A stretch of 63,179 bases of DNA, the filler included. It is 4 parts of 4 records of this genome, joined end to end, with 100 filler letters (N's around TTAATTAATTAA, not from the genome) between each part and the next. Parts side by side here need not be neighbours in the genome. Positions count along the whole stretch, not along the records: positions 45,287 to 59,865 come from SRR20825010_5553; 3 more parts are not named here. One strand, given 5' to 3'. The notes beneath the pieces are model-generated. The model did not search any database, was not told where the DNA came from, and saw only the letters and a list, made by a program, of their open reading frames with translations. Shown piece after piece: positions 45,187 to 59,865 of this stretch. Every line of letters starts with the position of its first letter. Positions within the stretch are counted from its first letter, which is position 1. The translations under genes and the position numbers were made by a program.

Positions 45187-45286
45187 NNNNNNNNNNNNNN
45201 NNNNNNNNNNNNNNNNNNNNNNNNNNNNNNTTAATTAATTAANNNNNNNNNNNNNNNNNNNNNNNNNNNNNNNNNNNNNNNNNNNN
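45187..45286. other. Artificial contig linker
   Basis: 44 N + TTAATTAATTAA + 44 N. Confidence 0.98.
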
Positions 45287-46510
45287 CCATCCGCCAATAC
45301 CATGCAATAAGGCTCCATCAGAGTGAGTCACCACATTTGCATTGAAGTTAACATCCACTTCTGTGGCACCCAATATGACAACATCCAGCAATTGAGCGAA
45401 ATTACCCTTACCATGATAATTGTAACTCGTGAAAGGGCTGGTGTTAACATGGTTCGGATTATTTCGCATTGACTTCACGCCTTCCAAATCGAAAGTCTGC
45501 CCATCTAGAATATATTCGACCAAACCCTCTTCCAACATTTCAACGAGATATTTGTTGCTTCCTCCACGCGCAAAACGCGCTTTCATTCCTTTGGCTTTTA
45601 ACATTTCGGCAAAATAAATTCCAATTGAAAGAGCTGTCCCTCCTGCTCCTGCCTGAAAGGAAAAGCCATCGCGAATAATCCCTACTTGCTCACAGAATTT
45701 TGAAGTTAATTCTGCTAAAAACAATCTATCCGGACTTTTGGTAATTGCTGTTGTACCTGAAACAATTTTTTCTGGAATTCCTACTTGATCAACTTGAACA
45801 ACATGATCAACATAGTTCCCTTGAATATGCCAGGGCACGCATGGAAACGGAACCAGATTATCCGTTACCACAATCACTTTGTTTGCATATTGTGAATCCG
45901 CCAGTGCAAAGCCCAACAAACCACAAGCAGTTGCCCCATCTACTCCATTGGCATTTCCAAATGAATCTGCTGATGGAGCAGCAATCACAGCAATATCAAT
46001 TTCTACTTCCCCGTCTTGAACTGCCTGATATCGACCACCGTGCGATCGCAAAACCCCCACACCTTTCATTTTACCAGCTGTAGTAAAGCTTCCAAGTTGG
46101 CCATTCATACTGCCTTCGATGTGGTGAATCGTACCGTCTTCCAAATATTTTATCAAGGGCGCATGGCAATCAAAAGAAGCAGAAGGAAACCATATCAGAT
46201 CCTTAACTCCCAACTCCGCAGCTATGTCAAATATCTGAATAGCGATAAGGTCTCCATTTCTAAAATGATGGTGTGTCGATATAGTCATCCCATCTTTCAA
46301 TCCCGCATTGACTAAAGCTTGCTTTAACGATGGGACAAGTTTATTCCCATCAGCAGGAAAGTCCGCACACGATGAAATGAGTGGCCCGAATTTTCTTCCA
46401 TCAGGGCGATGCTTTCCAACTCCCTTATATGGTATTTCTGGTTTGCCATTAACTAGTGTAGGTACCGATCTACCTATCGCATTCACTACAACTGCATCCT
46501 TACCTTTCAT
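45287..46510 (-). CDS. citF: Citrate lyase alpha subunit (citrate CoA-transferase), 3'-truncated by the contig edge
   Basis: GLKDGMTISTHHHFRNGD, LRSHGGR, FSFQAGAGG, LDVVILGATEVDVNFNANV. Confidence 0.93.
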
Positions 46511-46522
46511 AATTTGCTATTC

Positions 46523-47728
46523 TTATTCCTTATCGCTCCAATTTTTCTCTAGTCGACCTAGCGCAACCGCCAGGTCGATTGTCCGCATCGCACGTTTCAC
46601 GACAGGCGCATCAATCATTTTTGTGCCAAGGGAAACAACCCCCAACCCCTTTTCAGAGGCAATTTTAAACGCCTTAACAATTTTTTTTGCGGCATCAATT
46701 TCGACTTCAGTAGGTGCGAAATTTTCACGAATTATTGAAACCTGTCGTGGATGAATACAACCCATACCTTCAAAACCCAAAGCCTTTGAAGCCTGTACAT
46801 TGGCCTTCAAAGCAATCATATCCCCCACATCACTAAATACAGAATCAATGGCCTGTATCCCTGCCGCCTTGCATGCATGAACAACCTGAACCCGAGCAAA
46901 GAGCGATTCCACGCCTTCGTTGGTCCTATTCACCCCCATATCGGCGGTATAATCTTCCAGGCCAATGGCCATGGCCACAACATTTTCCGCAGCTTCTGCG
47001 ATTTCAAGAGATTTCAAAACGCCACGCGCACTTTCAATTATGGGCATTAACCAAACGGGATCCTTTGTACCCGTTTTATTTTGAATCAGGGCAATCCTTT
47101 CATTTACCGAATGTATTTGAGCTGCACTTTCACATTTCGGCACCAGCACAAGATTTACATTGTGAGGGACCACATAGTCTAGATCCTCCAGACCTGCAGG
47201 CATTTGATTGATCCTTACCATCCGCTCAACACCCATGAAACTCAGGTTTCTCAGCGCATTTCTAACAAGCAAACGAGCTTCTCCTTTTTTATGAAAAGCA
47301 ACTGCATCTTCCAGATCCAGTATCACTCCTTCCGGCTTATGGATACCCGCATTGATCATCAAACTGGGTGTGTTTCCAGGGAGGTACAGGCGTGTAGTCC
47401 GTGGTTGATCAGCCACTGTATGATATTGATTTTCAGGCAGCATCTCCAAAAGGTATTGCTCATCAGTTGGTTTCAACTGCTTTATCGCTGCCTCCACCCG
47501 CGCCGCAATCACAAACGGCAAAGCACCTTTATCAGATATCTCAAGAACCGCGTGTTCAATAGAGAAAAAATCAAGGATGGATTTACACAGAAGCCTGATG
47601 TCTTCTCCATAAAGCGCATTGACCTTGCTAATTACCTCAATCTGAATGCCTCCGGATTGGACTAACTCCAAAGTCACCAAACAGTCCGACCTGTCCTTTT
47701 CACCATTATTCCCAGCCGTTGCAATCAT
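46523..47728 (-). CDS. citE: Fused citrate lyase acyl carrier (CitD) and citryl-CoA lyase beta subunit (CitE)
   Basis: N-terminal ~90 aa CitD-like (ATAG...RSDCLVTLE, SKVNALYG, DKGALPFVIAARVEAA), then CitE (RTTRLYLPGN, ILDLEDAV, LVPKCES, IIESARG, GCIHPRQ, MIDAPV). Confidence 0.9.
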   Translation of the reverse strand: MIATAGNNGEKDRSDCLVTLELVQSGGIQIEVISKVNALYGEDIRLLCKSILDFFSIEHAVLEISDKGALPFVIAARVEAAIKQLKPTDEQYLLEMLPENQYHTVADQPRTTRLYLPGNTPSLMINAGIHKPEGVILDLEDAVAFHKKGEARLLVRNALRNLSFMGVERMVRINQMPAGLEDLDYVVPHNVNLVLVPKCESAAQIHSVNERIALIQNKTGTKDPVWLMPIIESARGVLKSLEIAEAAENVVAMAIGLEDYTADMGVNRTNEGVESLFARVQVVHACKAAGIQAIDSVFSDVGDMIALKANVQASKALGFEGMGCIHPRQVSIIRENFAPTEVEIDAAKKIVKAFKIASEKGLGVVSLGTKMIDAPVVKRAMRTIDLAVALGRLEKNWSDKE

Positions 47729-47765
47729 TTTGAACTCATTAAAAATTTTACAAAAACAACCACTA

Positions 47766-49268
47766 TTATTTTGCCCATATCGGTAAAGTCATCTCCAAAT
47801 CCAACCAGGGAACGATGATGAAATACAGAATCATCGTCAGAAGAAATAAAGTAATCAGATTTAGCCAAAAACCTGTTTTAACCATCTGCGCAACCGAAAC
47901 TCTTTCACTTGCCAACACCACAGTATTAGGCCCGGTAGCAGCAGGCATCATAAAGGCACAGGAACATGCAACTGTAGCCGGTATCATTATCAACAGGGGG
48001 TTAACACTCGCTGCTATGGCCGTGCTTGCCAATACGGGCAGCAAAATATTTGCACTGGCTGTATTGGAATTAAACTCGGTAAAAACCAAAACAAAGGCCA
48101 TCACAATTATTAAAATGTAGATAAAAGAGAAGCCACTAATAAATGAAAGTTGCCCTCCCAACCAATCAGCCAATCCCGTTGACACAAAACCCTCGGCCAC
48201 AGCATATCCACCTCCTACGATCATCACAACACCCCAGGGTACCTGACTGGCTTCCTTCCAGGTTATTAATCGTTTATCGTCACCTGCCGGAATCAAGAAT
48301 AATACAATGGCAGAAGCCATGGCAATGGTACTGTCATGTATTTGACCGGAAATCCCAAATAAACCGGTCCATCCGGGAATCACCAATGACCCAAAAACTA
48401 GATCGTTTTTAAAAACCCAGGCAAAAACCGTAACTGCAGCGATATACAAGACTCTTTTTTCACCTGCCTTCATTTTACCCAATGCGTTCAGCTCATCCTT
48501 GATTATTGTTAAGTTATTGCTAAGGTCTCCGTCTATTTTGAAATAGTTAATAATAAAATACCAAAACACCGGGATTAATATCACCAATATTGGGACTCCT
48601 ATTTTTAGCCAAACAAAAAAATTAACCGGTGGAGCCTCGGGAAACATCTTATCGAAAATCCCAACAAAAATCATATTGGTTGGTGAGCCAATAAGCGTGG
48701 CAAGCCCACCAATAGACGCAGAGTAGGCAATAGCAAGCATTAATGCCGGAGCAAATCTATTGCTCTTTTCAACTTCTTCATCCTTACCAATTATGGAAAG
48801 ACCTATAGGCAACATCATCAAAGCTGTTGTGACATTTGCGATCCACATTGAGACCAATGCTGTTGCAATCATCATACTTAAAACAATTTTTTGTCGACTC
48901 GTGCCAAAGACATTAATAATGGTAAGTGCAATTCGCTTATGAAGATTTTGTGTTTCAATGGCCTTTGCTAAAAAGAAAACAGCCAAAAACATAAGCGCAT
49001 AATTATGTCCATAATTCGCGGCAGTTTCCGCCGGCGATAATATGTTCATTAAAGGATACAGCACCAATGGGATAAATGCAGTAACATAAACAGGTATAGC
49101 TTCGGTTATCCACCAGACGCTCATAAGGGCCACAACAGCCGCAGCTCCTTTAGCTTCTGGATTCATACCTTCCGGATTAGGGAGAAATAAGATAATCCCA
49201 AACACTGCTATTCCAGTTAAAGCACCAATCGTTTTCTTAGTTAGCATTTCTTTCCCGCTTAAATTCAA
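47766..49268 (-). CDS. SLC13/DASS Na+:di/tricarboxylate symporter
   Basis: WWITEAIP, SMWIANVTT, IGSPTN, TEFNSNTA, FMMPAATGPN; start TTG 49268 or ATG 49247. Confidence 0.92.
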   Translation of the reverse strand: MNLSGKEMLTKKTIGALTGIAVFGIILFLPNPEGMNPEAKGAAAVVALMSVWWITEAIPVYVTAFIPLVLYPLMNILSPAETAANYGHNYALMFLAVFFLAKAIETQNLHKRIALTIINVFGTSRQKIVLSMMIATALVSMWIANVTTALMMLPIGLSIIGKDEEVEKSNRFAPALMLAIAYSASIGGLATLIGSPTNMIFVGIFDKMFPEAPPVNFFVWLKIGVPILVILIPVFWYFIINYFKIDGDLSNNLTIIKDELNALGKMKAGEKRVLYIAAVTVFAWVFKNDLVFGSLVIPGWTGLFGISGQIHDSTIAMASAIVLFLIPAGDDKRLITWKEASQVPWGVVMIVGGGYAVAEGFVSTGLADWLGGQLSFISGFSFIYILIIVMAFVLVFTEFNSNTASANILLPVLASTAIAASVNPLLIMIPATVACSCAFMMPAATGPNTVVLASERVSVAQMVKTGFWLNLITLFLLTMILYFIIVPWLDLEMTLPIWAK

Positions 49269-49297
49269 TCAAACCTATGTAATTCAACCATTGCATA

Positions 49298-49316
49298 TTG
49301 ATCAATAATCGATCAA
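49298..49316. promoter_or_regulatory. Palindrome in the divergent intergenic region, candidate operator
   Basis: TTGATCAATAATCGATCAA, 8 of 9 arm positions complementary. Confidence 0.4.
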
Positions 49317-49422
49317 AATCATATTTTTAAAACTATCATATTAATAATATATTCATGTTTTTTGGGTTTAAAACAATGAATATTTCTAATATTTGATAAT
49401 CTTAAAACAATAATCGCAATCA

Positions 49423-50949
49423 ATGATTAAATCAGAAGCCTTGATCTACTTAGTCAATTCCATGACGAAACCAGAAAAGAAAGCCTTTAGGGTTGCTACT
49501 GATTCTTCTGAGGGAGCCTACTACCTCCAGCTATATGGTCTAATTGATAGTAAAAAAGAAATCACATCTGAAGAGCTAAGAGAAGCGTTCGCCCTAAAAT
49601 TACCAAAAGCGTCCTTTGACACTTCAGCAACCCATCTTTACAAAGCACTCCTGAATACGATGCTTGATTTGCGCAAAGATCAGGATAGTTACTATTCATT
49701 ATTTGATAAAATCCTAAAGGCCAGAATTCTATTTGAGAAATCCCTGTATCAAGAGTGCTTCGACACGCTTGAAAAAGTAAAAAAGGATGCCACCAAATAT
49801 GAAAATTACTACGCCTTATTGATCTCTTCTCGGTTGGAATTGGAGTACCTGCTTGCACTGAACTTTCCAGGATTGGATGAAAAAGAATTGCTCCACAAAC
49901 ACTTTAAGGTAAGCGAGACTTTACGAATAATTCAGAAAATACATCAACAATCTGCTCTTTACGAATTGCTGAAGTTCCGTATGCTTCATCGGGGCAATGC
50001 CCGATCAGAGAAACAAAAAACAGAGCTAAACGATTTGGTGGTAAGCGAGATGAGTATTGTATCCTCATCGAACATCGAAAATTTTGAAATAAGGAAATTA
50101 CATCAGCTATTTCAGGCCAACTATTTGATCAGTGTAGGGGATTATAAGTCAGCATTTCATTCATTCAATGAACTCAATAATTTGCAAGAAGCAAATAAAC
50201 ACTTATGGTCAAACCCACCGATCTACTATGTATTATCTTTAGAGGGAATACTGGATAGCTTGAGAAGCCTGAGAGATTACAAAGGGATGAGTCATTTTGT
50301 ACAACAGCTAAAGAAAATTGAAACTCCCTTCTTAAGTTTTAATACAAATGTTACTTGTCTTATCTTTCTGTATGAGCTTTTTCCTTTGCTGGATCGGGGT
50401 GATTTCAAATCCTGCGCTCAACTCACGAAAAAATATGAAACAACATTGCTCAAAAAGGCACAGCTTCTTAGTCTTGCGCGAAATGCTGAACTACACCTTT
50501 ACCTTGCCCTGATTAATTTCGGGCTGAAAGAATTTCAGATTGCAAAGAAAAGTTTAAGTAAAATCATATTCACGAATAGAGACTATTCATATCTACCTGT
50601 ATTTAGAACCATTCGATTAGTAAATCTTATGATTCTTTATGAGTTAAGGGATACTGAATTCATAAAATATGAAACAAGATCTATCAAAAGAGATATCAAT
50701 GCAGCTGGTAAAGAATATAAAATAGAGAAGAAGATTATCAGCTTTGTAAATAAAGCTAATCTCCCCATTTCGAGTGTAAAAAGGAAGCGACTTTGGGAAA
50801 GCGTTGAAAAAGATTTTGAGATTATCAATCACGATGTTTACGAGCAGCAAACACTTCGTCTCTTTGATTTCTCTGCCTGGATTGAGAGCAAGGTGAGAAG
50901 GATTTCACTTTCTGAAATCTTAGAAACCCGAGTTTCTCAAGAATATTAG
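49423..50949 (+). CDS. Hypothetical all-helical (TPR-like) cytoplasmic protein, possible regulator
   Basis: 508 aa with no signal peptide or TM; N-terminal LIYLVNSMTKPEKKAF and C-terminal FDFSAWIESK. Confidence 0.85.
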   Translation: MIKSEALIYLVNSMTKPEKKAFRVATDSSEGAYYLQLYGLIDSKKEITSEELREAFALKLPKASFDTSATHLYKALLNTMLDLRKDQDSYYSLFDKILKARILFEKSLYQECFDTLEKVKKDATKYENYYALLISSRLELEYLLALNFPGLDEKELLHKHFKVSETLRIIQKIHQQSALYELLKFRMLHRGNARSEKQKTELNDLVVSEMSIVSSSNIENFEIRKLHQLFQANYLISVGDYKSAFHSFNELNNLQEANKHLWSNPPIYYVLSLEGILDSLRSLRDYKGMSHFVQQLKKIETPFLSFNTNVTCLIFLYELFPLLDRGDFKSCAQLTKKYETTLLKKAQLLSLARNAELHLYLALINFGLKEFQIAKKSLSKIIFTNRDYSYLPVFRTIRLVNLMILYELRDTEFIKYETRSIKRDINAAGKEYKIEKKIISFVNKANLPISSVKRKRLWESVEKDFEIINHDVYEQQTLRLFDFSAWIESKVRRISLSEILETRVSQEY

Positions 50950-51143
50950 CCATAATCCCTTTACACATTTTCAATTCCTTTGTCAGATAGTAAGATCGCA
51001 GACTAATTCTAAATCCTCTACCCCCAGAGAGGTGAGATTTGTGGTCAGTATCGACTAAATAAAAGCCTTCTCACAGATTTCAGAAAGCTTATGTCGTTAT
51101 TGGGGGAAGGTATAAGAACGCATAAACATGTGGTCAATAAAAG

Positions 51144-51350
51144 CTACGTACGATTTGGATCGCTCATCTTACCCTCATTGAGGTTATAATAAATTCGCTG
51201 AGTTGGGTAGGCAAAATCAATGCCTATGTCCTTAGCAAATGCCTTGAGCACATCTTCCCAAATCTTGTGTTCGGATGTTTGGTTTTTTTTTGATTAACCA
51301 GGCTCCTCATTGTGAGCATACCCCCGCTTACTGCCTCCAATGTTCTAACC
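51144..51350 (-). pseudogene. 3' fragment of an MscS-family channel gene
   Basis: SGGMLTMRSLVNQKK, frameshift, EHKIWEDVLKAFAKDIGIDFAYPTQRIYYNLNEGK...*; no 5' part. Confidence 0.7.
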
Positions 51351-51374
51351 AATGAAGCTGCTGTGCTTTCCGAC

Positions 51375-51569
51375 ATGTATGTGTATGCCAAAACCCTACA
51401 CATCAATAGGTTTGAAACAAAACAGCTGGAATTGAGCCTTTGAGTAATCCGGAAAACGAATGATAACTATTTCAGTGAATGGTTCAATCATGATAGATTT
51501 GGGGCAATTACAAAAAGGAATTTATCTGATTGGCGATGGCCAAACGCCAAGAAAATAGTTGTGAAATAA
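51375..51569 (+). pseudogene. Remnant of a T9SS C-terminal sorting domain
   Basis: YVYAKTLHINRFETKQLELSL / GKRMITISVNGSIMIDLGQLQKGIYLIGDG / NAKKIVVK* across frameshifts; hairpin at 51576-51613 follows. Confidence 0.55.
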
Positions 51570-51662
51570 ACAAGATTATCACCCGGCATTTAAGGGAGTA
51601 TGTCTGGTGGTAATGAATTATAAACTTTATTTCATACGCACCGATTCGAAAGATCATTGACC

Positions 51663-53726
51663 CTAATGCAATTCAAGAATCTCAAACTCTACCCGACGGT
51701 TTTTGCTTTGCCCTTCTTCTGTTTCATTTGTCGCTATCGGTCGTGCTTCACCATACCCCATAACTTCCATTCGGTAATCAGGAATGCCTTTGCTTCTGAA
51801 GTAATCGTAAACAGCGCGAGCCCTATTTTCCGAAAGGTTCTGGTTGTACTCGTCAGAACCAATGTTATCCGTGTGCCCTGATATCCGTATTTTCTTAATT
51901 TGCCCATCACTCATACTGCCGTAAACCCTATCAAGCTCTGAAAAAGAGGCTGTTTTGAGTTCAGATTTGTTGAAATCAAAAAAGATGTTGTTCAGAATGA
52001 TTTTGGCCTGCTTTTCAATTTTTGTGAGGTACAAATCCTGAGTGATGGTTTTTGACGCAGTGATTGTATTGAAATCAAAGTTGAAACTCTGTGTCAAGTG
52101 ACCGTATTTGTTGGCATGAATCCCATAACTGGCTCCACCACGCACTTTGATCGAATAATAACTGGAGTCGCTGTTTACTTTGCCTACATCCAAACCATCA
52201 GGTAATCTTTCGATCACCACAGCTGCACTAGCTATTCCCTCCTTAGTCTGATAGTCCAACACTCTTCCTTCTATCGTAACGAATAGTTCGTCAGGCCGTG
52301 GTGTTGTCAGATGATTGATGGATGCGGTGATTGGGTTGACCGCTTTACTATCAAAAAATAAATCGTCGGCATTAAATCGAAAGATATCTGTATCCTCATC
52401 CATGTCGCCTCTGGAGAAATATATTTGATTGCCTGAAGACGGGATACTAAAATATTGATCATCCTCCTTACTATTGATTCCGGAACCCATGTTTTCAGGA
52501 GCAGACCATTTTTCCCAGCTTTCATCCAGCCGCATAGATACAAATATATCAGCCCCACCATAGCCGCTAAATCCGCTGGTTGAGTAGTATAAGGTTTTTT
52601 GGTCGGCACCAAGGAACGGAGCATAATCATCTCCAGCTGTATTTAGATCCCCGCCCATATTTTTAGGCTCAGACCATGCTCTTCCCTTTTTATGTGAAAT
52701 ATATAAATCACGTCCACCATAAGAATCGTCCCGCTCAACAGAAAGGACAATTGACTCCCCACTACCTACCAGGAAGAAATCCGCCCTGGGTGAGTAATTG
52801 TATTCGTTTTCAATTTCTACGGACTCGGGTTTGTCGAACGAGTCGCCATGCCGTTGCGACACGGAAATACCCGAATACATTCTCCCTTTTGCAGCGTATC
52901 TATTACCAAGTATCAATGTTTCCTCACCATTGACGTTGGTGATTGAGCTTATAAAATTGGGGCCACTTGTATTCAATGGAGGCCCTATGTTCTTGGCCAA
53001 CTTCCACTGTCCGGTTCTCTCATCCATCTCGGACATCCAGATATCCTCAGGATCATCCACTCCTCCAACATTGTCCGGGTGGTATTTTCGGCTGAAATAC
53101 AACCGTTTTCCATCAGGAGTGATTATGGGACCATTCTCTTGATAGGCACTATTTACATTAGCACCGAGCTTTTCGGTCTGAAAATTCTCATTGATACCTG
53201 GCACAAGGTTAATCAACACACTGATTGGGATATTGGATACAGAGATCCCAATGGCGTCAATGCTGTTGTATCCGGGTACTGCCGCACCATCAATAACCAC
53301 TTTAATAGCATGAATTTTATAGGGTGTGTCGTCGAAAAACAAATTCAGTAACCTGCTTTCGATGGGAATTGGTCTCGTTCTAAGATCTAACAAGGTGTAT
53401 TCCAGATACTCCTCATCGTAAGCCAGTACCTGTTTTATCGCGCCGGGGTTTTCGGATTCGGCTATAGCCACTTGTTTTGCCTGAATAGGTTTATCGAACG
53501 ACACGACAATGAACTGTTCATCATTGTCATTCTTCGGGCGCCAGGCACTGGGATTGTCCCCTCCTGCCGGGAAAACATTGGGTTTGTGCAGGGCCTGAAT
53601 GCCCGAATAGCCTAAGCGACCATATTCCGATGAAACATCTACAACCTGAGAAGCCCAAACGACAGTTTCCTGTGCTTTGACATTCCCGAAGGCTAAAATT
53701 GCGGCGATAATCAGTGATTTTTTCAA
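51663..53726 (-). CDS. OmpA family protein with PD40 beta-propeller repeats
   Basis: PIITPDGKRLYFSR, SGYGGADIF, NIFFDFNKS, GHTDNIG, NLSENRA, NRRVEF. Confidence 0.92.
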   Translation of the reverse strand: MKKSLIIAAILAFGNVKAQETVVWASQVVDVSSEYGRLGYSGIQALHKPNVFPAGGDNPSAWRPKNDNDEQFIVVSFDKPIQAKQVAIAESENPGAIKQVLAYDEEYLEYTLLDLRTRPIPIESRLLNLFFDDTPYKIHAIKVVIDGAAVPGYNSIDAIGISVSNIPISVLINLVPGINENFQTEKLGANVNSAYQENGPIITPDGKRLYFSRKYHPDNVGGVDDPEDIWMSEMDERTGQWKLAKNIGPPLNTSGPNFISSITNVNGEETLILGNRYAAKGRMYSGISVSQRHGDSFDKPESVEIENEYNYSPRADFFLVGSGESIVLSVERDDSYGGRDLYISHKKGRAWSEPKNMGGDLNTAGDDYAPFLGADQKTLYYSTSGFSGYGGADIFVSMRLDESWEKWSAPENMGSGINSKEDDQYFSIPSSGNQIYFSRGDMDEDTDIFRFNADDLFFDSKAVNPITASINHLTTPRPDELFVTIEGRVLDYQTKEGIASAAVVIERLPDGLDVGKVNSDSSYYSIKVRGGASYGIHANKYGHLTQSFNFDFNTITASKTITQDLYLTKIEKQAKIILNNIFFDFNKSELKTASFSELDRVYGSMSDGQIKKIRISGHTDNIGSDEYNQNLSENRARAVYDYFRSKGIPDYRMEVMGYGEARPIATNETEEGQSKNRRVEFEILELH

Positions 53727-53739
53727 TTAAATATGAATT

Positions 53740-54432
53740 TTAATTGCCTAATACCCTTACCTCAACCCTACGGTTTTTGGCTTTTGCTTCGGATGTTCTT
53801 TCTGTACTGAGGGGCTGAGTTCCTCCGAAGGCTTTGGTTAAAACTCTGTTCTTTTTTACTCCTTTTTTAACAAGGTATTCTTTGGTGGCATCTACTCGAG
53901 ACAGTGAGAGTTTCATATTAGCAACTGGGTTTCCAGCAAAATCTGTATGCCCTTCCAACTGAATTATAGTATTCGGTCGGTCTTCTAGCCATTTCACCAG
54001 CTGATCCAATTGCTCGTATGAGCTTTCTGTAATTTTATCATTCCCACTTGCAAAAATCAAGTTATCAAGTGTTATCAATTCATTTTCATCACCAGGTTCT
54101 ATAAACATGGTGAAAATAAAAAGACCATCACCATCAGGATCCTGAATGACTACTTCCTTATTCGATTGGTTATACCCATTTTTATCGGCAAGGAAGCTAT
54201 ACCCCACACCTTCGGCCAAATAAAATTCAAATTCTCCATCGCTACCTGCGGTTGTAATTCCGATATCATCAAAATAGGGCAATTTTTCATATGTTATAGA
54301 CGCAGCTACTGACGAGGAGTCCTGCTGACTGAGAATCTTCCCATAAACTTTAATGAAATTTACACTTTCGGGTTGTGCGTAAGATGAACTTATATAGAAT
54401 ATTGTGATCAGGAATAATACAAACCTGTACAT
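53740..54432 (-). CDS. OmpA family protein
   Basis: LEGHTDFAG, KLSLSRV, NRRVEV; ATG at 54432 (MYRFVLFLIT signal peptide) preferred. Confidence 0.9.
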   Translation of the reverse strand: MYRFVLFLITIFYISSSYAQPESVNFIKVYGKILSQQDSSSVAASITYEKLPYFDDIGITTAGSDGEFEFYLAEGVGYSFLADKNGYNQSNKEVVIQDPDGDGLFIFTMFIEPGDENELITLDNLIFASGNDKITESSYEQLDQLVKWLEDRPNTIIQLEGHTDFAGNPVANMKLSLSRVDATKEYLVKKGVKKNRVLTKAFGGTQPLSTERTSEAKAKNRRVEVRVLGN

Positions 54433-54619
54433 AGCGGTGACTCTAACGGAAAACATACTGCAAATTAAAATTTTTTGTTCGCTATTGATTAGGATACGAA
54501 TAAGTATTTTGCATAAAAAATGCATTTAATATAAACTTGGCATATAAATCGACGAAACAGTACATTCCATCGTTAAACTAAATCTTCAAATAAAAAAATC
54601 TTCAAACTTAAGCCGCGAC

Positions 54620-55534
54620 ATGAAATACTTTCTAAATATTATCCTAATTCTGCTACTCACTGCTGCAGTTGGACAAACTAAAATTCAATTCAAACTCGAT
54701 GACGGAAAGGGCTTCTTCTCCGCTTATCCACCACCGGAAACACCAAAAGGAATTTTAATATTATTACCCGATTATTTACAAGAGGAAGAAGCGTTTCTCA
54801 AAAGAACCACGGTGATGAATCAATGTTACAATCAGGGGATCGTGACAGTGGTTGTTACAGTTGGTAGAAAAATATTTGCAGATGGTACCGTAGTGGATTT
54901 GCTTTCAGAGGTTTGCAAAAAAACAATGGAGGGTTTTGAGGTTCCGCGTGATAAAGTTGTTTTCGGTGGATATGGATATGGAGGAACCATTCTACTGAAA
55001 TATGCGCAGTTGTGTTTAAAGTATGAAAACGATTTTCCGGTGAGCCCTGCAGCTGTTTATGCTGTCAATACTCATGTAGATATTACTCTGGCATTCAAAA
55101 GCTATGAACGTCAGATTGCTCAAAACGTGAATGTAGAGTTAACTCAAAATGCCAAAAACTTCAAGGACATTATGCTGCGAACACTTCAGGGAACGCCAGA
55201 GGAGGATCCATTCATTTATGATTCATTTTCTCCCTTTAAATACGGCTCCAAATCTGTTGATAACATTGAGATGCTAACTCAGACTCCCATTCGACTCTAT
55301 AATGACACGGATTTGATATGGAACATGCAAAACAGGCAAAACAGCGCATATGATATGCAAGCGACAGCCTCTTCCGAGTTTATTTATCAATTAAAAAGAC
55401 TGGGGAACAAAAAGGCGGAGTTTATTTCAACAAATATTGAAAACCCAACAGGAAAGAGAAATTCAGTCGAACGGACGTTCGTTGATGAGGCAGATCTCAG
55501 TCTTTGGATTACCAATCAATTAATAATAAAATAG
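54620..55534 (+). CDS. Secreted alpha/beta-hydrolase-fold-like protein, apparently without the catalytic Ser
   Basis: Signal peptide, PKGILILLP, and VPRDKVVFGGYGYGG at the GxSxG position. Confidence 0.65.
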   Translation: MKYFLNIILILLLTAAVGQTKIQFKLDDGKGFFSAYPPPETPKGILILLPDYLQEEEAFLKRTTVMNQCYNQGIVTVVVTVGRKIFADGTVVDLLSEVCKKTMEGFEVPRDKVVFGGYGYGGTILLKYAQLCLKYENDFPVSPAAVYAVNTHVDITLAFKSYERQIAQNVNVELTQNAKNFKDIMLRTLQGTPEEDPFIYDSFSPFKYGSKSVDNIEMLTQTPIRLYNDTDLIWNMQNRQNSAYDMQATASSEFIYQLKRLGNKKAEFISTNIENPTGKRNSVERTFVDEADLSLWITNQLIIK

Positions 55535-55558
55535 CGGCTTGTAAGAAATTCAGAGAAT

Positions 55559-56521
55559 TCAAAGGCGCACTGAAAGGCAGATCGTATTGATCAGCCAGGC
55601 AGCCAGCTTAGCTGTTTGATTGTCCTTATCATACTTGGGATTCATCTCCACAACATCGGTACTGATCAACTTGCCGGATTGTGTTATGAGGTGAATCACT
55701 TTTTGAACCAATCCTAGATCAAAACCCATTGGAGACGGAGCACTCACCCCTGGGGCGTATGCGCTCGAAAACCCATCCAGATCAATGGTAAGATAAATGT
55801 GATCGACCATGGAGATGAAAGTTGAAATACGCTGAGCGATCGTGGTGAGGTTGTCAATCCGAAATTGATCCATTTCCATGAACTCAACTCCAAGTTCTTT
55901 CGCTGTTTCGTAAAGCCTTTTATTATTGACATGTGGTTGAACACCCAGACAGAGGTAATGAAAATTGGCTTCTTCCTGTCCAATCTGGTAAAAGGGAGTT
56001 CCGGAATTACGCCGGTCTTCTACCTTTCTCAGGTCAAAATGAGCGTCGAGATTGATAATACCAATTTTAGTCTGGTTGCTTTTTGTCCCTAAATGATTTT
56101 TGATCCCCTGAAAATGGGCATACGCCAGATCATGCCCTCCCCCTAACAAGATTGGAAAGCAGTTTTGATCAAGCAAGTGTTTCACTTTTTCGGCTATTAA
56201 ATCTTGCGCTCCATCCAGATTTTGATCCTCACAAACCACATCACCACAGTCCAAAAGCCGTACATCTGCTTTCAAATGATCCGCAAAACCTGCCAATGAT
56301 TTTCTAATTTCCCCCGGTCCTTCTTTAGCACCAATTCTTCCCTGGTTTCGCCTCACCCCCTCATCACAGCAATAGCCAAGCAAAGCGATTGACTTCATGC
56401 TTTTATGAATGGGGAGGGAAACGTCGGGATCAAGGCATTCTACTTTTTGATAGATGTAAATTAGCTCATCAGCACTTCTACCCGTCCAGTTGTCCTTGTT
56501 TTGTGGTTTATAATAAGCCAT
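55559..56521 (-). CDS. hutG: Formimidoylglutamase
   Basis: DEGVRRNQGRIGA, LGGGHD, NLDAHFDLR, IDLDGF..APGVSAP. Confidence 0.93.
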   Translation of the reverse strand: MAYYKPQNKDNWTGRSADELIYIYQKVECLDPDVSLPIHKSMKSIALLGYCCDEGVRRNQGRIGAKEGPGEIRKSLAGFADHLKADVRLLDCGDVVCEDQNLDGAQDLIAEKVKHLLDQNCFPILLGGGHDLAYAHFQGIKNHLGTKSNQTKIGIINLDAHFDLRKVEDRRNSGTPFYQIGQEEANFHYLCLGVQPHVNNKRLYETAKELGVEFMEMDQFRIDNLTTIAQRISTFISMVDHIYLTIDLDGFSSAYAPGVSAPSPMGFDLGLVQKVIHLITQSGKLISTDVVEMNPKYDKDNQTAKLAAWLINTICLSVRL

Positions 56522-56523
56522 GG

Positions 56524-58524
56524 CTAAAATAGGTTCTTCAGCAATTCGTCCTCAACTAATTCTGGCAAAGTGACGGAGAGTTTTGGTGATCGTTTCATTT
56601 CACGCTTGATGGCAAAAATGGCTTCTTCGTTTCTTCCCCAGCTTCGCCGGGCAATGCCATTGTTCACATCAAAAAACAACATGTTTTGAATTTTTCCGTC
56701 CGTTTCCTCACTCCCATCAAGCACCATCCCAAAACCTCCATTGCTCACTTCGCCCCAGCCCACACCGCCTCCGTTATGAATGGAAACCCAGGTAGCACCC
56801 CGGAAGCTATCCCCAATCACATTGTGAATAGACATATCAGCTGTAAACCGACTCCCGTCATAAATGTTGCTGGTTTCCCTAAACGGAGAATCCGTGCCAC
56901 TCACATCGTGATGGTCGCGTCCAAGGACAATAGGAGCGGTAATTTCTCCGGTACGGATTGCCGCATTAAAAGCCAAAGCAATTTTCATTCGCCCTTCAGC
57001 ATCCGAATATAAGATACGTGCCTGCGAACCCACCACAAGTTTGTTCGATCCAGCTTCTGCAATCCATTTAATGTTATCCCGGAGTTGCTGCTCAATTTCG
57101 GAAGGAGCCTCTTTGAGCATTTCTTGCATTACGTTTTGGGCAATACGATCTGTCTTTTCCAAATCCGCAGGATCGCCAGAGGTGCAAACCCAGCGAAAAG
57201 GCCCGAATCCATAGTCGAAACACATCGGCCCGAGAATGTCCTGTACATAAGATGGATATTTAAAATCAATTTGGTTTTCGGCCATCACATCCGCTCCGGC
57301 ACGGGAAGCTTCCAGCAAAAAGGCATTGCCGTAATCAAAGAAATAAGTACCTCTCGTTGTGTGCTGATTGATAGTATCGGCATGTCTTCGCAGCGATTCT
57401 TGCACCCTGACCCTGAAAGCCTCCGGGTCTTCACTTATGAGCGCATTGGCTTCTTCATAAGAAAGGCCTACGGGATAATAACCACCCGACCAGGGATTGT
57501 GGAGGGATGTTTGATCCGAACCAATTTCTACAAAAATACCGGCCAGGTGAAACCACTCCCACACATCGACAACATTCCCAATAAAAGCAATGGAAACAAC
57601 TTCCTCAGCTGATTTGGCTTCCTTCACACGTAAAATGAGTGCCTCCATGTCATCAATGAGCTCATCCACCCACCCTTGCTCATATCGTTTGGTTGCAGCC
57701 TCCGGATTTACCTCCGCACAGACCGTAACGCATCCGGCAATGTTTCCGGCCTTCGGCTGTGCGCCACTCATACCCCCTAAACCGGCTGTAAGAAAGAGTT
57801 TCCCTTTCGGGGAAACATCATTTCCCAACTTTCGCCGAAAGGCATTCATGACCGTAATTGTTGTGCCGTGTACGATTCCCTGCGGACCGATGTACATAAA
57901 AGAACCAGCCGTCATTTGGCCGTATTGTGTTACACCCAGGGCATTAAACCGCTCCCAATCATCGGGTTTCGAGTAATTGGGCACCATCATTCCATTCGTC
58001 ACCACCACTTTTGGAGCTGATTTGGAAGATGGGAACAGTCCCATAGGATGGCCAGAATAGAGATGTAAGGTCTGTTCTTCGGTCATTTGTGTCAAATATT
58101 TCATCGTCAAGAGGTACTGCGCCCAATTCTGAAAGACTGCTCCGTTTCCCCCATAGGTTATAAGCTCATGTGGGTGTTGCGCTACTTTTGGATCAAGATT
58201 GTTCTGAATCATCAGCATGATGGCCGCTGCAGATTCACAACGCGCAGGATATTCGGAAATGGATCGCGCGTACATATCATAATCGGGGCGGAAACGATGC
58301 ATATAAATGCGTCCATAGTTTTTCAGCTCCGACGCAAACTCCTTTGATAACTCCTGATGCCAGTGTTTCGGGAAATAACGAAGGGCATTTCGAATGGCTA
58401 GTTTCTTTTCTTCTATCGACAGGATACCCTTTCGCACCGGAGCGTGACTGACCTTGAAATCAATTTTTCTTTTGGGTGGAAGTGCCGCAGGTATGCCCTG
58501 TATAAGTTGGTTTTTGAAATCCAT
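56524..58524 (-). CDS. hutU: Urocanate hydratase (long form)
   Basis: YGQMTAGSFMYIGPQGIVHGT, AGLGGMSGAQP, SDQTSLH, GRDHHDVSG, HNGGGVGWG. Confidence 0.96.
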   Translation of the reverse strand: MDFKNQLIQGIPAALPPKRKIDFKVSHAPVRKGILSIEEKKLAIRNALRYFPKHWHQELSKEFASELKNYGRIYMHRFRPDYDMYARSISEYPARCESAAAIMLMIQNNLDPKVAQHPHELITYGGNGAVFQNWAQYLLTMKYLTQMTEEQTLHLYSGHPMGLFPSSKSAPKVVVTNGMMVPNYSKPDDWERFNALGVTQYGQMTAGSFMYIGPQGIVHGTTITVMNAFRRKLGNDVSPKGKLFLTAGLGGMSGAQPKAGNIAGCVTVCAEVNPEAATKRYEQGWVDELIDDMEALILRVKEAKSAEEVVSIAFIGNVVDVWEWFHLAGIFVEIGSDQTSLHNPWSGGYYPVGLSYEEANALISEDPEAFRVRVQESLRRHADTINQHTTRGTYFFDYGNAFLLEASRAGADVMAENQIDFKYPSYVQDILGPMCFDYGFGPFRWVCTSGDPADLEKTDRIAQNVMQEMLKEAPSEIEQQLRDNIKWIAEAGSNKLVVGSQARILYSDAEGRMKIALAFNAAIRTGEITAPIVLGRDHHDVSGTDSPFRETSNIYDGSRFTADMSIHNVIGDSFRGATWVSIHNGGGVGWGEVSNGGFGMVLDGSEETDGKIQNMLFFDVNNGIARRSWGRNEEAIFAIKREMKRSPKLSVTLPELVEDELLKNLF

Positions 58525-58525
58525 G

Positions 58526-59779
58526 TCAGTCTTGTTTGAATGCTAAACGACCAGCTTTCCAAACCTCGCAAGGTTTCATGCGGCCTTGATGATAAGTAAT
58601 TTCATTGTAGTGATCTGTTGGAAACAGGGCAAAATCTGCTTTCTTTCCCTTTGCCAGAATGCCGCGATCGTTTAACCGAAGCGCATAGGCCGCCCGAAAA
58701 GTAATCGCCGAAAGCACCTCCGCATTCGTTAGTTTTTCAAACGAACCCAGTACGGAAGCTTGTGTCAATAAATCACCCATGGGCGCAGAGCCTGGATTCC
58801 AATCGCTGGCTATGGCAAAACAAGCGCCAGCATCCAGCAGTTTTCTCGCCGGAGCAAAACCACAGCCTAAACCCAAAGAAGCCCCTGGCAAAGCTGTCGC
58901 CACCACATCACTATGTGCCAGCATTTCAATTTCCTTAGCTTCACTAGCCTCCAGATGATCGGCACTTACTGCCTGAACCTGCACCGCCAATTTGCTCCCT
59001 GCTGTACTAAACTGATCGGCATGGATCGTGATATCAAAGCCCATGGCTTTGGCTTGCTTGAAATAAGAATGTAGATCGTTTTCTAAAAAGGCAGTTTGTT
59101 CCACAAAAGCGTCTATACGATTTGTGAGTTTTTCTTGCTTGATTTTTGGAAATAAATCTTTTGAAATCCAATCGAGATATTCGCTGGCGTTTCCGTCAAA
59201 ATCCTTTGGAACAATGTGTGCTGACAGACAAGTGGCGATCAAATCGGGATGGCTAAGTTTATTCGCTTCCTGTATTGCACGAAGCATTTTAAGCTCCTCG
59301 TCTACAGAAAGTCCATAGCCGCTTTTCACTTCTATAGTTGTGATCCCGTCGCTGAGGTGTCTTTTGGCACGTGAGACAATGCCCTGGGTAAGTTCGTGAA
59401 AGCTTGCCCGTCGGGTCTTGGTTACAGTATCCCAAATGCCACCTCCTTTTGACGCAATTTCCAAATAGGAGCTTCCAGCATTACGCAGGGCATAATCCTC
59501 TGCCCTACTACCACCGAAACAGATGTGTGTGTGGCAATCGACAAAACCGGGAAGGCAAACCGCCTTATCCGTCAATTCAATAATTTCTATTTCATCAGAA
59601 TGCTTGTATACGTCACACAACTGCTGGAAAGTCCCCACTTCGAGAATGAGTTCTTCTTCCATAAGCAAAGCTCCATTTTGAATAACCTCAAGTTGAGTAT
59701 CTCTTAGGGCTCCTTTAAGTGGAATTCCATTCATGGTTAAGAGTTGAGCGAACGGTCCGATTAATCGCTTTTTTTTCAT
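58526..59779 (-). CDS. hutI: Imidazolonepropionase
   Basis: PGFVDCHTH, EVKSGYGL, HADQF, SADHLE, ASDWNPGS. Confidence 0.95.
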   Translation of the reverse strand: MKKKRLIGPFAQLLTMNGIPLKGALRDTQLEVIQNGALLMEEELILEVGTFQQLCDVYKHSDEIEIIELTDKAVCLPGFVDCHTHICFGGSRAEDYALRNAGSSYLEIASKGGGIWDTVTKTRRASFHELTQGIVSRAKRHLSDGITTIEVKSGYGLSVDEELKMLRAIQEANKLSHPDLIATCLSAHIVPKDFDGNASEYLDWISKDLFPKIKQEKLTNRIDAFVEQTAFLENDLHSYFKQAKAMGFDITIHADQFSTAGSKLAVQVQAVSADHLEASEAKEIEMLAHSDVVATALPGASLGLGCGFAPARKLLDAGACFAIASDWNPGSAPMGDLLTQASVLGSFEKLTNAEVLSAITFRAAYALRLNDRGILAKGKKADFALFPTDHYNEITYHQGRMKPCEVWKAGRLAFKQD

Positions 59780-59865
59780 CAATAGGTCATAAATGGTTGG
59801 TAAGAAGGATCGTCTAATTCGCTGTTTTCTATTTCAGAAGATTGATTCATCACCCTAAGTAACTC
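59779..59865 (-). CDS. C-terminus of an upstream gene (partial), possibly histidine ammonia-lyase
   Basis: ELLRVMNQSSEIENSELDDPSYQPFMTY* with TGATG overlap onto hutI; identity inferred from context only. Confidence 0.45.
   Translation of the reverse strand, partial: ELLRVMNQSSEIENSELDDPSYQPFMTY

Follow-up and report, generated by a model that had tools for sequence, protein, structure and literature searches.

The locus studied here lies in a 63,179-nucleotide (nt) stretch of DNA, filler included, from a marine bacterium. This whole stretch is referred to as the window; within it, contig SRR20825010_5553 occupies positions 45287-59865, bounded by a run of N's that ends at 45286. Three minus-strand open reading frames (ORFs) stand there in the same orientation, separated by gaps of 37 and 12 nt: a DASS-family transporter, a fusion of the citrate lyase acyl carrier protein (ACP) CitD to the lyase subunit CitE, and citF (Table 1). 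The first-pass annotation of this DNA had described the same arrangement, and the Pfam and TIGR matches confirm it. To judge from its family matches, the DASS protein is a probable importer of tricarboxylate. The CitE domain scores 264 bits against the equivalog model TIGR01588 (cut-off 443) and retains the superfamily motifs DLED, RIN, IES, EDY, HP-Q and MID on a TIM barrel with a C-terminal lid. Full-length CitF copies measure 520 amino acids (aa) in the Marinoscillum loci L001 and L002, and one full-length CitF homolog scores above the cut-off of the citF equivalog TIGR01584. Taken as a whole, the evidence below is best explained by a two-chain lyase that uses free coenzyme A (CoA) in riboside/homocitrate catabolism, a reading to which we assign a probability of roughly 0.55.

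Table 1 Features of the lyase locus in window coordinates.
Feature	Positions	Strand	Evidence
DASS-family anion symporter	47766..49268	-	PF00939 1e-67, PF03600 1e-50, TIGR00785 above cut-off
CitD-CitE fusion ORF, 401 aa	46523..47728	-	PF06857 residues 12-84 (E 2e-16) and PF03328 residues 114-327
CitD/ACP-like domain without carrier serine, residues 1 to ~89	47462..47728	-	PF06857, profile alignment, models
Arg13 codon AGG, at the CitD Ser14 position	47690..47692	-	Sequence and alignments
CitE-type acyl-CoA C-C lyase domain, family motifs intact	46523..47461	-	PF03328 8e-50; TIGR01588 below cut-off
citF (acyl-transferase alpha subunit), first 408 of ~520 codons, ended by contig break	45287..46510	-	PF04223 2e-102
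RusR/BT2802-family gene, divergent, putative ribose-locus regulator	49423..50949	+	NF058569 9e-205, above cut-off

An artefactual fusion was considered and rejected: all 120 of the closest proteins among the matches listed carry both Pfam domains, and the 33 ACP matches found in 401 genomes of the phylum all sit in frames of ~400 aa. The closest loci are those of Marinoscillum sp. (98% aa identity; 89% nt identity across 45287-50943) and M. luteum (95% aa identity); the fusion had no match in the nearest genome, G001, which was left out thereafter. Beyond citF, the Marinoscillum loci continue with ribokinase, SusC, SusD, three ADP-ribosylglycohydrolase-family (ARH) genes, two esterases, a RusT-like permease and a DUF4595 gene. 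It had been cautioned that citC, citG or citX could lie past the contig break, a possibility that we discarded on finding none after citF in the near-identical loci L001 and L002. The locus also qualifies as a ribose-utilisation (rus) locus by the rule of bioRxiv 10.1101/574913, which asks for two or more rus homologs (RusR, ribokinase, RusT, SusC/D) side by side: RusR is in the window, and the rest are in L001/L002 and their extensions. A RusR/BT2802-family gene occupies the same position in seven related loci.

The fusion reads AGNNGEKDRSD where canonical CitD bears Ser14, the residue that we take to be the attachment site of the prosthetic group. A MAFFT alignment with seven annotated CitD proteins sets Arg13 of the fusion on Ser14 without a gap, and a profile-profile alignment to CitD (probability 99.5, 90 columns) is likewise gapless; G9/R13/S14/D15 of the fusion correspond to G10/S14/G15/D16 of E. 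coli CitD. No manual insertion is therefore needed to place Arg at the serine position, and the first-pass annotation, which had proposed this replacement and called for an alignment with E. coli CitD, is borne out. Ser14 is invariant in eight of eight canonical CitD proteins, and position 15 is Gly in E. coli. To survey the family, 150 cluster representatives at 50% identity were combined with the query, giving 151 proteins, of which 86 have an ACP domain. Among the 83 diverse fusions that align at the Ser14 column (three show a gap), the residue is Arg in 46, Lys in 30, Ser in three, Ala in two, and Thr and Gln in one each; the next position is Ser in 39 of 83 and the one after that Asp in 83 of 83. 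Closer to the window, 118 of the closest 120 proteins among the matches listed contain the R-S motif (the pattern missed two), and the serine site in 110 aligned hits (109 of 110 loci) is Arg in 104, Lys in five and a gap in one. Because Arg or Lys occupies the site in 76 of 83 diverse fusions, the replaced residue, on this sequence comparison, is under selection rather than simply decayed, and the neighbouring Ser is not under family-wide selection. The first-pass annotation had called the ACP vestigial; the loss of the serine stands, but plain decay of the residue does not.

The loading genes were sought in 50 of the 80 locus-derived genomes (longer contigs preferred) and in 32 genomes from an even sample of the phylum requested at a completeness of at least 90, and the E. 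coli positive control matched in each search. Among these 82 fusion-bearing genomes, citG was found in one and citX in one, and a strong full-length citC in one of 80 (G408 and G419 left out). The single genome with all three, G410, has a separate canonical operon, citD-E-F-XG-C, with a stand-alone Ser-bearing CitD. Both closest relatives of the window's genome, G002 and G003, were negative for the loading genes. PF08218 matched in 20 of 80 genomes, 19 of these being weak matches in frames of 160-191 aa, and the one weak match inspected is presumably CoaD. No MdcG that might stand in as loader was found in five genomes, a weak negative given that the control did not exceed the cut-off. This genome check, which the first-pass annotation had recommended, agrees with its claim that citC, citG and citX are missing. 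With the serine replaced and the loading genes missing, a free-CoA enzyme is therefore likely, and we consider it highly probable that the lyase has no protein-bound prosthetic group and uses free CoA. By its sequence, the system lacks two defining features of canonical ACP-dependent citrate lyase, the attachment serine and the loading genes.

Modelling supports a non-carrier role for the ACP-like domain. In the AlphaFold model of the whole fusion (mean predicted local distance difference test score, pLDDT, 96.5), R13 lies in a loop between strands 2-6 and 16-22, comparable to the loop between two strands on which the prosthetic-group Ser25 of malonate decarboxylase MdcC sits, according to the accessible portion of PMC5534430. 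The same portion describes the prosthetic group as joined via its 2' position, without a 3'-phosphate. On our reading, Arg or Lys could bind the 3'-phosphate of free CoA. A co-model of the ACP-like domain (residues 1-95) with full-length L001 CitF and CoA scored 0.83, against 0.01 for the best control; the mark applied was reached by 116 of 157 solved pairs and by two of 215 mismatched pairs. The runs share at least 95% of contacts, partner pLDDT is at least 89, and residues 13-14, 35-43 and 67-71 of the ACP-like domain contact the C-terminal part of CitF. A fold search with the whole fusion matched the lyase domain to CLYBL and malyl-CoA lyase (Z 34); such whole-protein searches listed lyase-domain matches only and gave no structural overlay on MdcC. 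Folding the ACP domain from its sequence alone gave a poor model (pLDDT 56), which was set aside.

We propose that CitF and the CitD-CitE fusion would act as a two-chain lyase that cycles free CoA and has no prosthetic group. CitF would transfer CoA from acetyl-CoA to a 2-hydroxy-tricarboxylate, freeing acetate, and CitE would then perform a Mg-dependent retro-aldol reaction on the acyl-CoA, giving a 2-oxoacid and acetyl-CoA for recycling. The ACP-like domain would dock CitE onto CitF, and its Arg or Lys may grip a phosphate of free CoA at the spot formerly taken by the phosphoserine linkage. The structural ACP suggested by the first-pass annotation is backed by the docking model and the loss of the serine.

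Two genomic contexts bear on the substrate. In one, a gene of the isocitrate dehydrogenase (IDH) family and an HD protein adjoin the lyase in about 18-19 of 80 loci, some of which add homoaconitase-family, PrpD, saccharopine dehydrogenase and LKR-like genes. The best family match of the IDH-family protein is homoisocitrate dehydrogenase (HICDH), below cut-off; among PDB entries it matches a putative isocitrate dehydrogenase best and HICDHs next, and it has YSSPIV-LR in common with the solved HICDH 3ty3. Close HICDH-like homologs (at least 64%) occur in 29 of 33 fusion genomes, as opposed to three of 368 other genomes of the phylum, and 12 further fusion-free genomes have homologs at ~50%. The protein that accompanies the HICDH-like gene is a small HDIG-domain protein (L040:13981-14529 and 17 similar loci). 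In many Bacteroidales, genes for methylmalonyl-CoA epimerase and a Na+-pumping decarboxylase lie directly upstream of citDE-F (L041:5000-10000 and ~16 similar loci).

The other context is a ribose/ARH cassette. In all four of the 33 fusion genomes that do not have the HICDH-like gene, citDE-F adjoins four ARH genes together with a sugar ABC transporter. The HICDH-like gene is present in 36 of the 50 locus-derived genomes, and these 36 show no ARH in the locus; 13 of the other 14 have an ARH cassette (in one case an edge fragment plus the rest of the cassette). Over all 82 genomes, a set biased toward relatives of the window, the totals are 64 of HICDH type, 17 of ARH type as in Marinoscillum, and one of neither. 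In related loci of the ribose type, the transporter is either a DASS or a CitMHS protein. In quick trees, the ARH-linked CitFs fall in two groups among the HICDH-linked ones. An approximately unbiased test on this CitF grouping gave p 4e-42, which we treat as supporting only, because the group (22 of 84 rows) was chosen after the first tree, the tree was quick and an unlabelled row, L066, lies inside an ARH group.

Elsewhere, ARH cassettes pair with a different lyase. In Ensifer, the cassette encodes a CoA-transferase of family III together with a CitE-like lyase, and no CitF. Among 80 multi-ARH cassette loci from metagenomes, CitF or CitD was found in none; where the locus extends 5 kb or more downstream (19 loci), a family-III CoA-transferase is present in all 19, a stand-alone CitE-like lyase in 18 and ribokinase in 12. 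A known kind of free-CoA pair and CitF with the fusion thus substitute for each other in one slot. The hydrolase neighbourhoods of Microvirga, Paraburkholderia and Persicobacter were set aside, as they have a single hydrolase and no lyase. Two genes past the Nonomuraea hydrolase-ribokinase cassette stands a LeuA-type synthase (L143:16611-18305), which may be incidental.

In the Marinoscillum copies, SusC/D would import a riboside, three ARH-family enzymes would free ribose to feed RusT and ribokinase, and the acid aglycone would go to the DASS transporter and the lyase. That the lyase serves the aglycone of a riboside is, in our estimate, somewhat favoured by the evidence. One compound would fit both the HICDH and the ARH contexts: ribocitrin, described in the available part of PMC12381216 as a tririboside of (S)-homocitric acid. 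Its biosynthesis is given there as unknown, with tentative detection in Streptomyces isolates (PMC12381216 and, in part, PMC13136089).

We give about an even chance to (S)-homocitrate as the substrate, cleaved to 2-oxoglutarate and acetate. The same free-CoA mechanism could instead act on citrate, yielding oxaloacetate and acetate, in fermentation, as a reductive tricarboxylic acid (TCA) step of the kind proposed for Ignavibacterium, or on a citrate riboside or ester. Citrate would suit the CitF homolog above the equivalog cut-off, the transporters that match citrate-carrier families, the Na+-pumping decarboxylase cluster upstream in ~17 of 80 loci and the citrate cleavage proposed for Ignavibacterium in the part of PMC3362086 that is accessible. 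However, the upstream decarboxylase is of the methylmalonyl-CoA type, and the lyase co-occurs tightly with the HICDH-like gene, with homoaconitase and saccharopine genes in some loci. Marinoscillum relatives, moreover, have citrate synthase matches and aconitase-sized matches, so that citrate would need no lyase there and could be oxidised directly. We hold citrate to be unlikely; "another tricarboxylate", an aside of the first-pass annotation, looks more likely than citrate fermentation. Less probable again is a free-CoA lyase for another 2-hydroxy acid (citramalate, an alkylcitrate or some other aglycone), in which case the HICDH- and ARH-linked substrates may differ. The two contexts barely overlap, Cytophagales/Bacteroidales ARH-linked CitFs have Glu/Asp (SASF-E/D) where most others have Pro, two CitF subtypes stand in tandem in four loci, and CitE-family enzymes are promiscuous, as stated in the available text of PMC3832036. 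Yet the ARH-linked CitFs nest among the HICDH-linked ones at ~70-77% identity, and the second ARH-linked group is without the Glu/Asp change.

A covalent carrier would survive if Ser14 of the fusion, the neighbour of Arg13 that the first-pass annotation had named as a possible attachment site, or another residue held a prosthetic group loaded by unrecognised enzymes. This Ser is retained in 109 of 109 aligned Bacteroidota-type hits and is located at the modelled CitF interface, and a conserved HD protein accompanies HICDH-type loci (18 of 80). Across the diverse fusions, however, it is kept at that position in only 39 of 83 and E. coli has Gly; CitG and CitX are missing in 81 of 82 genomes, and the HD protein was not found in five Marinoscillum-type genomes (one query, no positive control). 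We regard a covalent carrier as very improbable. As for homocitrate, a far-reaching version of our proposal is that a family of ACP-like domains docking CoA non-covalently acts as an undescribed (S)-homocitrate lyase and here completes what would be the first pathway for breaking down ribosides of the ribocitrin type, with ARH proteins as alpha-ribofuranosidases and the transferase-lyase cassettes elsewhere doing the same job. All these parts holding together is rather unlikely.

Several observations weigh against the free-CoA homocitrate reading. The close HICDH-like gene was not found in the five Marinoscillum-type genomes tested, where only distant partial matches (at most 49%) to the IDH and aconitase families occur; since these genomes are without the homoisocitrate module, homocitrate is extrapolated from other lineages. 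The homocitrate of the aminoadipate pathway is R and CitE-type lyases are S-specific, and PrpD, which might mend this mismatch, is in only two of 80 loci. The chemistry is deduced throughout. The association with the lyase holds in one direction, most hydrolase-ribose loci having no lyase. In M. luteum's family, close ARH occurs in 19 of 121 genomes and CitF in only one; 14 of those ARH loci (mostly single-ARH, one with three) show no lyase or transferase. Likewise, three of four plasmid-collection cassettes (Nonomuraea, Agrobacterium and Nitratireductor) are without the transferase-lyase pair in the stretch seen. The genomes are mostly metagenome-assembled genomes (MAGs) and mutually related, so the presence counts are not independent. 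Three diverse fusions (P0193, P0159 and P0191) retain Ser. Likeness to the solved MdcC-MdcA complex may account for the docking score, and the CitF in that model was the one from L001. With respect to P0193, this singleton has a canonical motif, for which an independent fusion or an assembly artefact is possible.

The fusion is present in 33 of the 401 sampled genomes of the phylum, and fusions are also named from Methanomicrobia and Thermoplasmata MAGs; a reversed arrangement, CitE followed by the ACP-like domain, exists with Lys at the site. Mastigella eilhardi and Kipferlia bialata (P0162 and P0207), anaerobic protists that are not related to each other, encode CitF, ACP-like domain and CitE as a single chain, with Arg or Lys at the site. 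The family is thus widely spread. These triple fusions are sisters in the CitF tree (99), and lateral transfer is possible. Tandem citF paralogs follow one citDE in L041, L042, L045 and L055 (about 11200-14900 in L041/L045/L055; 1294-4516 in L042); the two subtypes diverge at several motif segments, FGGST against RGGSN, which may mean two acyl donors or substrates.

Elsewhere in the window, positions 55559-59782 appear to encode formimidoylglutamase, urocanase and imidazolonepropionase, which we take to be histidine-utilisation genes. An apparent partial tRNA gene, judged by eye, lies at a contig end (45141-45186). The last contig (59966-63179) has a GC content of ~58%, compared with ~40% elsewhere in the window, and its genes (ZapE-like, DapF-like) are presumably alphaproteobacterial; judging from these features, the bin may be contaminated.

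Textbook citrate lyase takes six genes and an ATP-dependent activation. If our reading is true, a two-gene form on free CoA would show that the reaction can do without the carrier arm and would offer a far simpler part for pathway engineering. In many MAGs the fusion genes bear labels such as "citrate lyase acyl carrier protein", and citrate fermentation or a reverse TCA cycle has been argued from them; with homocitrate as the substrate, that conclusion would be wrong. For a large number of orphan bacterial clusters of ADP-ribosylglycohydrolases, the context would also supply a concrete, testable class of substrate. A literature search that covered few subscription papers returned nothing on serine loss, homocitrate lyase or ribocitrin breakdown; in their accessible portions, PMC2996986 describes the canonical citrate lyase cluster only, and PMC8887013 and PMC3534657 deal with ATP-citrate lyase only. 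The riboside link did not turn up in the searches, and the fusion itself is already known; the serine loss is real, the free-CoA mechanism is likely, and the substrate is a bet.

Compared with the E. coli citCDEFXG citrate (pro-3S)-lyase (EC 4.1.3.6), the present system has homologous CitF, CitE and a CitD-like domain, the same order D-E-F and an adjoining tricarboxylate-type transporter, but D is fused to E, Ser14 is replaced by Arg/Lys, citC, citX and citG are absent, and the surroundings are ribose-utilisation or homoisocitrate genes rather than fermentation genes. A closer precedent is the Ignavibacterium album pair IALB_1146/IALB_1147, CitF and a CitE-CitD fusion noted in 2012 and read as citrate cleavage (PMC3362086). 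We liken it by its published description, and Ignavibacteriaceae homologs group with the present family; the accessible part of that paper does not remark on the serine, does not contain "citC" and reports no biochemistry. Stand-alone CitE-like acyl-CoA lyases use free CoA thioesters, as the available text of PMC3832036 states. The present lyase domain shares its fold with malyl-CoA lyase, (S)-citramalyl-CoA lyase and CLYBL, and such a lyase with a family-III CoA-transferase fills the same slot in other ARH cassettes; unlike these, the transferase here is CitF and the lyase retains an ACP-derived domain. The locus resembles Bacteroidetes rus loci in RusR, ribokinase, SusC/D and a RusT-like permease, and differs in the added DASS transporter and lyase; the part of bioRxiv 10.1101/574913 at hand reports variants with ADP-ribosylglycohydrolases and esterases, and "citrate" is absent from its main text. 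Lastly, malonate decarboxylase MdcC/MdcA, as portrayed in the accessible portion of PMC5534430, has an ACP of the related family PF06857 that binds the transferase at its C-terminal domain, much as modelled here, whereas MdcC is covalently loaded by MdcB/MdcG and the reaction is a decarboxylation.

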